Below are positions 4,332 through 11,977 of a DNA stretch of 11,977 nt, piece by piece. The first letter of the stretch is position 1; each line of letters begins with the position of its first letter. The DNA comes from Armatimonadota bacterium (GTDB taxonomy: Bacteria > Armatimonadota > Armatimonadia > Armatimonadales > Armatimonadaceae), in assembly GCA_043754515.1 (NCBI GenBank), contig JAYUUO010000140.1:1-11977 (forward strand), given 5' to 3'. The notes under the pieces were generated by a model. That model worked only from the letters and a program-made list of their open reading frames with translations. It was not told where the DNA came from and made no database searches. Made by a program: the position numbers and the translations under genes.

Positions 4332-4925
4332 TTATCGTAGAACCGTCCCCCTCTTAAAAGGTTGGTAAGGCTCGGGGGCACTGAACCGCTCGGTCATCTG
4401 CCCCATTGTGACGTCAAAATGGTCAAGCAGGTCTGCGTAGACGAAGCAATAGTATGAAACCCAAAGCAGGGCGACTTTGCCATCACGTCGCACGCGCCAG
4501 CCGACTACCCAGCAATACGAACCGGCGGGTTCATCGCTAATCTCCTTGACGCATCGCGCGAGAAAAAACGGGCTACGCGGCTGATCGTCCAGCAACTCTT
4601 GAAGCCGGTCGGAGAGCCGTGTTATGAAACCGGCGCGTGACAACGGTTCATCGCGCGGGCCTTCGACGACATTTCGAGCGAGAGCGAGAGCGGGCGGATA
4701 CCTCTCGCCCGACGACATCAGCGATGACAAAGGATCCGGTACTACCTCGGCCGGTAACGCGATCTTGCTCCGATCAATGTAACCTATGCCGCACAGGGCG
4801 AAGCCCGTTATAGCGTCACCGCAAGAAATTTGGGCGAAGTCGCCTCTGAACTCGCAACCAGGAGGCAACGCCACCTGATTGTAGACTCCGTCTTCGCATT
4901 TTTCGTAGTTCGTCAGGATATACAT
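4332..4925 (-). CDS. Hypothetical protein, 197 aa
   Basis: Uninterrupted ORF with globular-protein composition in a lower-GC stretch, no competing ORF, co-oriented with the upstream membrane gene; no motif recognised. Confidence 0.7.
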   Translation of the reverse strand: MYILTNYEKCEDGVYNQVALPPGCEFRGDFAQISCGDAITGFALCGIGYIDRSKIALPAEVVPDPLSSLMSSGERYPPALALARNVVEGPRDEPLSRAGFITRLSDRLQELLDDQPRSPFFLARCVKEISDEPAGSYCWVVGWRVRRDGKVALLWVSYYCFVYADLLDHFDVTMGQMTERFSAPEPYQPFKRGTVLR

Positions 4926-4960
4926 GATGAATTTTAGAAGTCAATATCTGACAACGTGAC

Positions 4961-5581
4961 TCAATACACGACGATATTTCTCTTGTAATCACTCGGGCTT
5001 AATGGATTGAGGGTAAGATCAAAGAAGCAGTCTATGCGGTGATCGTCAACAAAACGAGCCGCTTTCACGCCCTCCGCAGGGTCTTCCTGGTCCAACTGTC
5101 TCCTTAACAAAACGCCGGGAATGATGTGTATATCCTGAACGACAACGACATAACCACTGCTCAACATTCTCTCGTACAGACAAAAATTCACGACATAATT
5201 GTCCTTCTTGAGAGTCTTCACGATCTTCATGTCAGGTTTATCGCCGCCTGATCGGAGAACCGCAATTTCGAATCCAGCGCTCAAAGACAAAAGAACAGAT
5301 ACGACTACGATCGGGATGGTAAGGGAAATCGCGATCGTCTTCGACAGACCTGGCTTCAACATTCGGCTGTTTATGATCAGCATACACGTCAGCGGAATGG
5401 AAGTGAGGAAAATGATGATTATGGCAACCGCGTTTAATCTATCACTCATAAAACAGAATCCGCCGGACGGCAAAGAATTCAAAGACCATAGGTTAATCAG
5501 CAGTACGATGTAGGTGATCCCGAAAACCCACAGGGCTTTTTTGAAGCGACTGTAGCTGATGATAATGGGCGAGTTGTTCAT
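4961..5581 (-). CDS. Hypothetical membrane protein (about 3 TM helices plus soluble C-terminal domain), 206 aa
   Basis: Hydrophobic segments ALWVFGITYIVLLINLW, AVAIIIIFLTSIPLTCMLII, IAISLTIPIVVVSVLLSLSAGF. ATG 5581 preferred (purine-rich GGAAGGG upstream) over TTG 5701. Confidence 0.72.
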   Translation of the reverse strand: MNNSPIIISYSRFKKALWVFGITYIVLLINLWSLNSLPSGGFCFMSDRLNAVAIIIIFLTSIPLTCMLIINSRMLKPGLSKTIAISLTIPIVVVSVLLSLSAGFEIAVLRSGGDKPDMKIVKTLKKDNYVVNFCLYERMLSSGYVVVVQDIHIIPGVLLRRQLDQEDPAEGVKAARFVDDHRIDCFFDLTLNPLSPSDYKRNIVVY

Positions 5582-5785
5582 AATCCGCGCGTGTCCCTTC
5601 CGTGTATCCTCGTATCGGCGTTCGGAGCTCTCGAATAAGCCGCAACGCTTACCGATGGTAACACCCGATACAGTCACCGCCTCGAACGTGAGTATGCTCA
5701 ATCACTACCAATATTTCGGAGTTCTGTTGCTATTGATACTCCCTAATGGCAACCATTGCCGTTCAAGATATGAGGGGGAAATGAG

Positions 5786-9269: not shown

Positions 9270-9588
9270 AGACGGGGATGCGCTCCGTCGCGTCCGAATA
9301 CACTGGTTCATTAGCGTCTGAGCGGGTGGATTGTAGACGCCAGGGCGGGTGGTGAAACCCGGAGGCGGTCGGCTTCGCGGCGGCGGGCGGGGCGCATCCG
9401 CGACGGGGGGCCGTCCCTGCGACCGGGTACCCGCTCGCGGGTGGGAACAGTTCACCGTCCGTACCGATGCGACCCGCTGAACGCAGGGGACGCCCCGCCC
9501 GACGCCAGCCACAAACAAATCCGCGATACCAACTAACCGAAAATCTACGAAATCGCCCCACTTCCGTACCCGCACGCCCCCCACCGAT

Positions 9589-9598
9589 GGGGTATCCT
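9589..9598 (+). promoter_or_regulatory. Candidate -10 box for a leaderless crtI transcript
   Basis: GGGG-TATCCT (-10 at 9593-9598), 6 nt before ATG 9605; no SD. Confidence 0.5.
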
Positions 9599-9604
9599 AA
9601 AGCC

Positions 9605-11092
9605 ATGGCAAACGGCTTAGGGGCGCGGCGGGCGGTGGTGATCGGGTCGGGTTTCGCGGGAATGGCGGCGGCGTGTTGCCTCGCGCAACGCGGCTTCGCG
9701 GTTACGGTGCTGGAGAAGAACGGGCAGACCGGGGGGCGGGCGCGGACATGGACGAAGGACGGGTTCACGTTCGACTTAGGCCCGTCGTGGTACTGGATGC
9801 CGGACGTGTTCGAGCAGTTCTTCGCCCGCTTCGGCAAGAATCCGTCCGACTACTACGATCTAGTTCGGCTCGACCCGGCATACCGCGTCGTGTTCGGCGA
9901 GAACGATCACGTAGACATCGCCGCCGACCTGGGAACGCTCACCGAACGCTTCGAGGCGATTGAGCCGGGCAGTGCCGCTAAGTTGCGCGAGTTCCTGGCG
10001 CAGGCGGAGTATAAATACCGCGTCGGGATGAACGACTACGTGCGCCGCCCGTCGCTCTCGATCCTGGAGTTCATTGACGCACGGATCGTGAAGGAGTCGG
10101 TGCGCCTCCAGATGGTGCAGACGATGCGCGCTCACGTCGAGTTATTTTTTAAGGACGAGCGGTTGCGCCGCATTCTGGAGTTCCCCATTCTGTTTTTAGG
10201 CGGCACAGGGCGCGAGATTCCGGCGATGTACTCGCTGATGAACTATGCCGACCTGGTTCTGGGCACCTGGTATCCGATGGGCGGTATGCGCAAAATCGCC
10301 GACGCGATGGAAACGCTGGCACTCGAACTGGGCGTCCATATCGTCACCGACGCCGAGGTGGACGCCATCGAGATCGAGCGCGGCATCGCGAAAGCGGCGA
10401 CGACGAAGGGCGGGGCGCGCTACGACGCCGACGTGGTGATCGCGGGCGCCGACTACCATCACGTCGAGCAGCACCTGATCGCGCCGGAATACCGCACCTA
10501 CGATGAACGCTATTGGGACTCGCGCGTCCTCTCGCCGTCGTCACTCCTTTTTTACCTGGGCGTTGACAAACGGCTACAAAACCTGAAGCACCACAACCTG
10601 TACTTCGACGAGCCGCTGGACCCACACGCCGAGACGATCTTCGGGCAACCGTCCTACCCCGACAAGCCGCTGTTCTACGTCTGTTGCCCGTCGCAGACGG
10701 ACCCCACGGTCGCGCCCGAGGGCATGGAGAACATATTCATCCTGATCCCGCTCGCGCCCGGACTTTCGGACACGGACGCCGAACGCGAACGCCTCTACGA
10801 CATCGTGATGGAGCGGCTGGAGCATTTGACTAGGCAGACGATCCGCGACGCGGTAGTCGTGCGCCGCGACTACGCGCACCGCGACTTCATCGCCGACTAC
10901 CATTCGTACAAAGGGAACGCGTACGGGCTGGCGAACACGCTCGCGCAGACGGCGTTCTGGAAACCGACGATCAAGCCGCCGAAGGTGCGCAACCTGTACT
11001 ACTGCGGGCAACTCACGGTGCCGGGTCCGGGCGTTCCGCCGTCGTTGATCTCGGGGCAGATCGCCGCCGAACTTGTCATCGCCGGGAAGTAA
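9605..11092 (+). CDS. crtI: Phytoene desaturase family protein (CrtI-type), 495 aa
   Basis: FAD-binding VVIGSGFAG, GGRA, FTFDLGPSWYWMPDVF, LVRLDPAYRV, GTWYPMGGM, GNAYGLANTL.QTA, GQLTVPGPGVPPSLISG. Exact desaturase specificity is inferred. Confidence 0.88.
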   Translation: MANGLGARRAVVIGSGFAGMAAACCLAQRGFAVTVLEKNGQTGGRARTWTKDGFTFDLGPSWYWMPDVFEQFFARFGKNPSDYYDLVRLDPAYRVVFGENDHVDIAADLGTLTERFEAIEPGSAAKLREFLAQAEYKYRVGMNDYVRRPSLSILEFIDARIVKESVRLQMVQTMRAHVELFFKDERLRRILEFPILFLGGTGREIPAMYSLMNYADLVLGTWYPMGGMRKIADAMETLALELGVHIVTDAEVDAIEIERGIAKAATTKGGARYDADVVIAGADYHHVEQHLIAPEYRTYDERYWDSRVLSPSSLLFYLGVDKRLQNLKHHNLYFDEPLDPHAETIFGQPSYPDKPLFYVCCPSQTDPTVAPEGMENIFILIPLAPGLSDTDAERERLYDIVMERLEHLTRQTIRDAVVVRRDYAHRDFIADYHSYKGNAYGLANTLAQTAFWKPTIKPPKVRNLYYCGQLTVPGPGVPPSLISGQIAAELVIAGK

Positions 11093-11201
11093 CGATCCTT
11101 CCCGTCAATAAAGCACCAATACTGCCCGATTTAATCCACGATGCAGGAAGGGAGCGGTATTCCGTCGAAATAGAACTTCTTCGCTAAAGGAGAGGGGCTA
11201 T

Positions 11202-11798
11202 ATGGCACAGGCGGAACGGCTCTACTGGATGGACGGCATCATGCAGGGCAAGGCGTACCTGCACTGGCAGACGGTGGTGGATAAGTTCGAGGTGCAACGG
11301 CGCACGGTGTTCAACGACATGCGGTTCCTGCGGGATCGGCTCGGGGCACCCGTCGCGTTCAGCCGACGCTTCAAAGGCTGGCATTACACGTCGTCAAATT
11401 ACCAAATCCCGTTCCTGGCCCTGTCGGACGGGGAAGCCGCCACGTTGCGCCGGACGTTGCTCGCTGCGCTCCCGGATGATCTGCTCGCCGATGTCCGCCA
11501 TGCCATAGACGACCGCCACCGGCTACGCCTCACGTATTACTCCGCGCATCGCGACCAGCTGACGGAGCGGGTGATCCGACCGTACCGGCTCCTCAATCGC
11601 GGCGGGGAGCTATACCTGATCGGTCACTGCGAACTGCGCGACGCGACGCGGGACTTCGGGCTACACCGGATTAAAGAGAGAACGGTGCTGGACCCGCCAC
11701 GGGCGTTCGCGGTGCCCGAATCGTTCGACATTGAGGCGTACCTGGAGACCGCGTGCGGATTGAAACGCTACTCCAATTTTTCGGGGCGGAAACTCTAA
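11202..11798 (+). CDS. HTH-WYL domain transcriptional regulator, shortened and C-terminally truncated (possible pseudogene), 198 aa
   Basis: SD AAAGGAG; winged HTH (KFEVQRRTVFNDMRFLRDRLGAPV....KGWHY); WYL domain (LRLTYYS...TERVIRPYRL....GELYLIGHCELRDATRDFGLHRI); ends shortly after PESFDIEAYL without a WCX domain. Confidence 0.85.
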   Translation: MAQAERLYWMDGIMQGKAYLHWQTVVDKFEVQRRTVFNDMRFLRDRLGAPVAFSRRFKGWHYTSSNYQIPFLALSDGEAATLRRTLLAALPDDLLADVRHAIDDRHRLRLTYYSAHRDQLTERVIRPYRLLNRGGELYLIGHCELRDATRDFGLHRIKERTVLDPPRAFAVPESFDIEAYLETACGLKRYSNFSGRKL

Positions 11799-11832
11799 TC
11801 CGATTTTCATCCGGCTCGGGTGCGGATTCAAC
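11753..11832 (+). CRISPR. Putative CRISPR array remnant: 3' half repeat, 37-nt spacer, degenerate repeat
   Basis: GTGCGGATTGAAAC (11753-11766), then 11767-11803, then TTTTCATCCGGCTCGGGTGCGGATTCAAC (11804-11832) with a CATCCG/CGGGTG stem. GTGCGGATT recurs at a 67-nt period. Only 1.5 repeats are present. Confidence 0.5.
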
Positions 11833-11849
11833 GAGAAATGTAAACACGA

Positions 11850-11977
11850 TAGGAGTTAAGTGAGTGATCAGAAATATGCTACGATCATTGTCGTGAGTCG
11901 TATGACCAAGATTGTACTTTCTGATGAACAGAAATCCGCATTGGAAAAAGGGGTTAAGTTTGGCAAGGTTCATGGCT
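11850..11977 (+). mobile_element. Left end of an IS630-like insertion sequence with transposase N-terminus (3'-partial)
   Basis: AT-rich segment starting TA-GGAGTTAAGTGA. An open frame from GTG 11893 (or GTG 11860 / ATG 11902) to the window end reads MSRMTKIVLSDEQKSALEKGVKFGKVHG, resembling the L(S/T)xEQxxxLExG...H N-terminus of IS630 HTH transposases. TG-C-TACGAT (11877-11885) lies 7 nt before the GTG. Confidence 0.6.

Follow-up and report, generated by a model that had tools for sequence, protein, structure and literature searches.

A shortened WYL regulator gene joined to CRISPR repeat remnants in an Armatimonadota genome: probable scar of a type I-C CRISPR-Cas locus

The locus and its features

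The window, i.e. the whole stretch of 11,977 nt analysed here, equals contig G000:C140 of the assembly of an Armatimonadota bacterium (G000; 313 contigs, 92.7% complete, 5.13 Mb). Near its right end lies a short gene for a WYL-domain protein that runs into pieces of a CRISPR repeat, and the contig ends inside an insertion element. The features discussed below are:

9467..11092, + strand: FAD oxidoreductase gene (Pfam Amino_oxidase); upstream flank, outside the scar
11202..11798, + strand: doubly deleted wHTH-WYL gene, 198 aa (Pfam WYL, PADLOC cas-associated WYL models, alignment, AlphaFold model)
11466..11471, + strand: 6-nt direct-repeat junction GCGCTC of a linker deletion (X6, X5 and X9 contigs; alignment gap)
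11753..11754, + strand: main deletion junction, at which the last base in common with the intact gene (third base of codon 184) is joined to the repeat
11753..11766, + strand: 3' 14 nt of a type I-C-class CRISPR repeat, GTGCGGATTGAAAC, identical to the end of the 37-nt repeat on contig C112
11767..11803, + strand: unique 37-nt spacer (C112 spacers are 35-37 nt)
11804..11832, + strand: degenerate repeat of 29 nt, with the loop 7 nt shorter, the 3' end decayed and a 6-bp stem kept
11851..11855, + strand: AGGAG, Shine-Dalgarno-like, seen in the sequence directly before the insertion element
11856..11977, + strand: IS630-like element, cut off by the contig end; its left end and the first part of its transposase are present

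The oxidoreductase gene, presumably of the phytoene-desaturase type, is directly followed by a MATE gene, without a WYL gene, in two of three same-genus genomes, and a WYL match at the site beside it was found in none of the three. At this site, the WYL/CRISPR cassette thus seems to be specific to the lineage. The oxidoreductase gene is preceded by a short repeat of about 40 nt (window 9416-9464), further copies of which, in either orientation, are present on several contigs of G000 and G002. Further to the left, two ORFs of 197 and 246 aa on the - strand (window 4332-5701) have no Pfam match; the GC content around them is 0.46-0.48 (window 4801-5700), and the low-GC stretch that holds them is probably a separate acquired segment.

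The 198-aa protein carries a WYL domain (PF13280) at residues 94-161 (E=3.9e-21, 75.3 bits, cut-off 21.8). A Pfam HTH match was not obtained for it, whereas the full-length homologue P0002 has a weak one (HTH_11, E=0.0094). In an AlphaFold model, the N-terminal region consists of three helices and a two-strand wing. Both domains are folded in this model (mean pLDDT 80.1, pTM 0.50) and the tail, residues 186-198, is disordered (pLDDT<50). Nine of the ten homologues found are 325-342 aa long and possess a WCX domain, which was also seen in a profile scan of P0002; the tenth, P0003, has 232 aa and no WCX. When aligned with these homologues, the window protein lacks 52 linker residues (compared with P0002) as well as everything past approximately residue 184, and it forms a cluster of one member. 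P0003 ends at FDAAAY, within about 8 residues of the position of the main junction in the window; this end may be a contig end or an independent truncation. The C-terminal end of the 198-aa ORF reads CGLKRYSNFSGRKL, its last 14 codons being translated repeat and spacer.

In the remnant, the word GTGCGGATT occurs twice, 67 nt apart. The exact 14-mer GTGCGGATTGAAAC is present in six copies in the 5.13-Mb genome, five of them in the C112 array and one here, while 0.03 copies would be expected by chance under a third-order Markov model. Aligned with the C112 repeat, the second copy agrees at 25 of 29 positions and shows gaps of 7 nt and 1 nt (1 nt is missing from the 3' end); 1 of 200,000 random genomic 45-mers scored as well. 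With one partial and one degenerate repeat, no leader and no complete repeat, the remnant is not a working array. The GC content drops from 0.64 in the WYL gene to 0.46-0.55 in the remnant and 0.39-0.40 beyond it. An earlier note, made from the letters of the window, had placed and counted the repeat-like pieces correctly (14 nt, 37 nt and 29 nt, with the shared word 67 nt apart). It had also pointed to a stem in the second copy, which does fold with 6 bp although it is not significant on its own (z = -1.29), and to an AT-rich shift; GC content does drop, but the AT-rich tail is for the most part insertion element and not CRISPR.

The spacer has no match in its own genome, in viral contigs (0 exact) or in phages or plasmids (best E = 4-5). 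When it was compared with the upstream 700 nt and with three other CRISPR/cas regions, no promoter match was obtained (1916 of 2000 shuffles were as good), and a promoter scan gave 0 sites. The exact repeat was found in 0 of 31 other genomes of the family and, allowing up to 3 mismatches, in 0 of 400 of the phylum; the gapped repeat pattern had 0 matches in viral contigs. The 23 nt that follow the second repeat were considered as a promoter-targeting spacer and rejected, 1169 of 2000 shuffles being as good.

Two deletions and an insertion seen against near-identical strains

Contigs from 4 of 22 listed public runs (X4, X5, X6 and X9) were compared with window 10700-11977. A 937-nt contig of X4, another sample of what may be the source study, covers 11431-11977 with 0 differences at a depth of 12.5; as it crosses both junctions, both represent real DNA. 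A contig of X6, from another study, fits on either side of 11466-11471 with 150 extra letters in between. Counted with the shared 6-mer GCGCTC, they amount to 156 nt (52 codons) that were deleted in frame from the HTH-WYL linker, with the 6-mer as the direct repeat on either side. Loose ends at the same two positions, 11466 and 11471, are found in X5 and X9.

A second X6 contig (one record, depth 2.2) fits 11668-11753 with 2 differences and then departs from the window. Its continuation past 11753 translates by hand to LELRRGEPLV, which matches FELRRGEP of a homologue and is the normal path into WCX. Since this contig continues as WYL-WCX, the main junction is located at 11753/11754, where the exact overlap between WYL gene and repeat amounts to ~1 nt. 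The intact 3' continuation was seen in this one contig of one study and extends only 123 nt past the junction. The contigs of X5, X6 and X9 leave 11775-11855 uncovered, which at a depth of 2-5 proves nothing. Over the WYL gene, the intact strains differ from the window by 0-2 letters per contig, which indicates that the events at this site are recent.

As the earlier note had proposed, the WYL gene is a deletion derivative joined to a repeat end, with its last 14 codons from repeat and spacer; the join is at codon 184. The note had also named a result that would speak against a fusion, namely homologues that align through ETACGLKR. At the protein level they seem to do so, ETACGLKR aligning with ETAFELQR and ESAFELRR; the DNA does not follow, as it diverges right after 11753. 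Because the DNA of the intact allele differs from 11754 onward, the likeness of CGLKR to FELRR past ETA is a coincidence. The 156-nt linker deletion and the IS630-like insertion had both escaped the note.

The insertion begins 23 nt past the second repeat. It is 73% identical over 119 nt in DNA and 72% identical over 36 aa in protein to an element on contig C125, and this homologue has Pfam matches to HTH_23/32/29/28. The end of the element is flanked by TA, it is followed by the start of an HTH-type transposase, and it is found at other sites; from these features we take it to belong to the IS630 family. X6 and X9 carry the sequence from 11856 on with a different left flank, by which the left end of the mobile element is fixed at 11856. 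Judging from the sequence, a gene may once have begun just beyond the AGGAG motif. On the right side of the element, four of eight contig starts checked begin with an IS630-like right end; by eye, no cas gene or repeat was seen on these, and none could be assigned.

Type I-C loci of relatives and the CRISPR content of the genome

With full-length P0002 as the query (E<=1e-50), nine matches were obtained in 8 of 71 genomes of the order, and all nine have cas genes directly downstream. Four of the loci are of type I-C (G005 twice, G010 and G018), one is of type I-B and two are I-PGING; the remaining two are a cas6 and cas3 locus without subtype and an I-E-like cas3 at a contig end. The neighbourhoods compared are those of these nine loci of the order. 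In the I-C loci, Cas1c scored over the profile cut-off in three, and Cas5c and Cas7 scored under it in L106 and L113. A tree of 20 proteins, rooted at the midpoint and computed in one search without a clade test, places the window protein in one group (support 99/99) with its 7 closest database homologues and with the WYL proteins that head the I-C loci of G005:C204 and G010:C53.

The four I-C loci resemble the window in having an orthologous WYL gene at the head and 37-nt hairpin repeats ending GGATTGAAAC on the same strand, the last repeat that could be seen lying 7.5-10.5 kb past the WYL gene. Unlike the window, they still have WCX, the cas genes and arrays, the latter with 10-45 repeats and, in three of the four loci, running to a contig end. 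Repeats of the GGATTGAAAC type occur in none of the eight loci of weaker homologues (L115-L122). A wider locus search produced only distant WYL proteins, with two loci in genome contigs and, in metagenomes, the best 80 of 290 at 23-43% identity; 1 of these best 80 has a GGATTGAAAC array. Several expectations of the earlier note were borne out here: all nine closest full-length homologues lead cas operons, the nearest two of them type I-C, the repeat is of the I-C-like class carried by the four relative loci, and its family does exist in the same genome (14/14 and 25/29 positions shared with the C112 array).

This orphan array (G000:C112:26023-26350, L123) has five repeats of 37 nt of the I-C class with spacers of 35-37 nt. 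It is preceded by a leader-like region, and no recognisable cas gene is present within about 10 kb. Its last repeat is not degenerate, and neither is that of the G005:C149 array, so that trailer repeats in this clade are not as a rule decayed. The ends of C112 spacers 3 and 4 are alike: each reads TTTCAATT(A), a sequence similar to a reversed repeat end.

Orthologues of I-C cas5, cas7, cas8, cas4 and cas2 were not found in the 92.7% complete assembly by tblastn with 20 proteins of the relative loci; the 20 queries gave 5 matches, all weak and all to the unrelated C61 system. A search of G000 with TIGR02589 gave 0/1, and one with TIGR01876 (Cas5c) had no match in any control genome either and so carries no weight. 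Two other CRISPR-Cas systems with different repeats are retained in G000, one on C61 and one on C138 with C143. C61 holds a cas operon and a 71-repeat array, related repeats being present on C77 and C302; C138 has an I-E-like operon with the matching array on C143, and the end of C310 carries three copies of another repeat. Self-targeting was rejected as a cause of the loss as far as the surviving spacers go: outside their own positions, the 4 C112 spacers, the 36 nt after the C112 array and the window spacer match the genome at no more than 26 of 35 positions.

In three of the relatives' I-C regions, a unit consisting of a degenerate repeat, a spacer and a GC-rich hairpin lies upstream of a small unannotated ORF and cas5c: L106:1300-1450 (G005:C204), L107:4900-5130 (G010:C53) and L114:9650-9830 (G005:C149). 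In L106 and L107, the spacer of the unit has a match in the DNA a short distance upstream, which 0 of 2000 and 9 of 2000 shuffles, respectively, equalled (the L107 match has a TTC PAM); in L114 the match is not significant (226 of 2000). The units are probable crRNA-like regulators. The small ORFs (L106:1458-1880, L107:4475-4900 and L114:9182-9553) encode 123-141 aa with mutual identities of 35% and 21%. They had no Pfam or PADLOC match, nor an NCBIfam match for the two that were scanned, and two of them contain a PD...E-x-E pattern, which we take to recall restriction-fold nucleases. They are candidates for a Cascade-repressed defence or toxin gene. In the type I-C locus L114, cas7 and cas4 are separated by an array of 45 repeats, and another array, with a related repeat, lies on the opposite strand upstream of the WYL gene.

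Origin of the remnant and its meaning

The site is best explained as the scar of a decayed type I-C CRISPR-Cas locus, to which we assign a probability of roughly 0.7. The WYL gene would have headed a cas5-cas8c-cas7-cas3-cas4-cas1-cas2 operon, followed by the array on the same strand. Besides the deletion in the linker, a second one would have run from codon 184 through the cas operon into the penultimate repeat of the array. With a size of ~7-11 kb, it would have taken WCX, the cas genes, the leader and all of the array except its last spacer and degenerate terminal repeat. The likely route is a short-homology deletion by replication slippage or end joining. One large deletion would explain both the remnant and the missing I-C genes in a single step, and it probably reached the last repeats of the main array. 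The earlier note had already proposed a single deletion. Its claim that WCX was removed holds; the removal of the cas genes and most of the array is what we infer, because the contig breaks in the insertion element and a regulatory mini-array has the same shape. Several observations weigh against a lost type I-C locus. The DNA to the right of the element is not linked, and the intact contig, the one record of a 3' continuation, stops 123 nt past the junction, so that cas genes were never seen here. Moreover, five of the nine close homologues head loci of other type I subtypes, the last repeats of C112 and G005:C149 show no decay, and the completeness of the assembly is 92.7%.

The strongest alternative, which we regard as unlikely, is that a small deletion of about 0.5-1 kb joined the WYL gene to a two-repeat regulatory mini-array located between WYL and cas5c. 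Through a crRNA-like RNA made from this mini-array, Cascade would have been directed to a promoter within the DNA that was then deleted. The insertion element would later have separated the next gene's start codon from its ribosome-binding site, and a separate loss or a failure to assemble them would account for the missing cas genes. The shape fits: two repeats surround one spacer, the downstream repeat is degraded, and there is an 11-nt 5' handle sequence as well as a 3' stem, but the end of an array has the same shape. One report describes mini-arrays with a well-kept upstream and a degraded downstream repeat (10.1101/2023.03.03.530964), and another describes two-repeat units upstream of cas5c in type I-C (10.1101/2024.12.27.630466). 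In L106, the closest relative locus, a repeat-like 30-mer ends ~130 nt past the WYL stop codon and is accompanied by the upstream spacer match given above, L107 being a weaker case. In addition, AGGAG directly precedes the insertion element and may be the ribosome-binding site of a next gene, and the target of the spacer could lie within the deleted DNA. The L114 unit does not add to this, its match being not significant. The relatives' units have, by eye, a degenerate first repeat and an unrelated downstream hairpin, whereas in the window the end of the first repeat is perfect (14/14), i.e. cut rather than diverged, and the second element is a copy of the repeat at canonical spacing. The spacer matches no surviving promoter, I-C Cascade genes were not found in the assembly, and a second event is needed to account for the missing I-C genes.

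By analogy with solved relatives, the protein left at the site has probably lost its regulated function and is non-functional, since both dimerisation and the ssDNA-sensing cleft depend on the linker and WCX in those relatives and the operon that it controlled is seemingly gone. No cognate Cas5d or Cascade by which the remnant could be processed was found in the assembly. The protein shares a WYL domain and, putatively, an N-terminal winged-helix region with the wHTH-WYL-WCX regulators PafBC, DriD, CapW and BrxR, and full-length relatives carry WCX and head defence operons; without the 52-aa linker and WCX, it is no longer a member of this group. In CapW, the dimer and the ssDNA cleft are formed by the linker and WCX (PMC11662680), and PafBC pairs through WCX (PMC6789036). 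The latter source also names Sll7009 as a CRISPR repressor, and WYL genes at CRISPR loci were already known from it (PMC6789036) as well as from the PADLOC models.

There is a slim chance that the HTH-WYL protein with its CRISPR-derived tail is expressed and selected as a rewired (constitutive or dominant-negative) regulator, or that the remnant makes a crRNA-like RNA. If this were true, CRISPR loss would have made a new functional gene within one population. Highly improbable in our estimate is the related proposal that the shortened gene was retained as a working compact HTH-WYL regulator, or as a dominant-negative partner of WYL proteins, with a new CRISPR-derived tail. Both deletions do keep the frame open and the upstream region is intact, although an in-frame deletion arises by chance in one case out of three. 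Both domains fold in the model, but the tail is disordered there and the pTM is 0.50. HTH-WYL proteins without WCX are a natural class, making up 15% of hits in one survey (PMC6789036), and P0003 also ends near the position of the main junction; against this, the protein cluster of the window has one member, near-identical strains retain the linker, and the parts lost here are those that make the dimer and the ssDNA cleft in CapW.

Metagenome assemblies often break or misjoin at repeats. That the junction is such a misassembly, or that the repeat likeness arose by chance in a natural WYL C-terminus, as the alignment of ETACGLKR with its homologues might suggest, is scarcely credible given the chance tests (0.03 copies expected; 1/200,000), the independently assembled contig from another sample that runs across the junction (depth 12.5, 0 differences), and the different DNA of the intact allele from 11754 on; as far as contigs can refute it, this explanation is already refuted.

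CRISPR-Cas loss that leaves repeat remnants is a known kind of event, and no new mechanism is involved in reading the site as a lost type I-C locus. A type V-A remnant described in Francisella (10.1101/2023.03.03.530964) likewise has a degenerate terminal repeat where the CRISPR-Cas locus was lost, and no cognate cas genes were found in the assembly here either. In the present case, by contrast, the breakpoints fall within a regulator gene and within a repeat, so that repeat and spacer are translated, and intact alleles are seen in near-identical strains. A literature search, which was not designed to exclude such a report and had most subscription papers outside its scope, returned none of this locus or of a WYL-repeat fusion.

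In conclusion, the window would hold a recent natural loss of a CRISPR-Cas locus that is cleanly resolved, with both breakpoints known to the base. With the intact alleles in near-identical strains of other studies, it can be tested in which order the events occurred and how frequent the loss allele is. Annotators are cautioned by this gene that a short HTH-WYL protein need not belong to a compact class and can instead have arisen by deletion.
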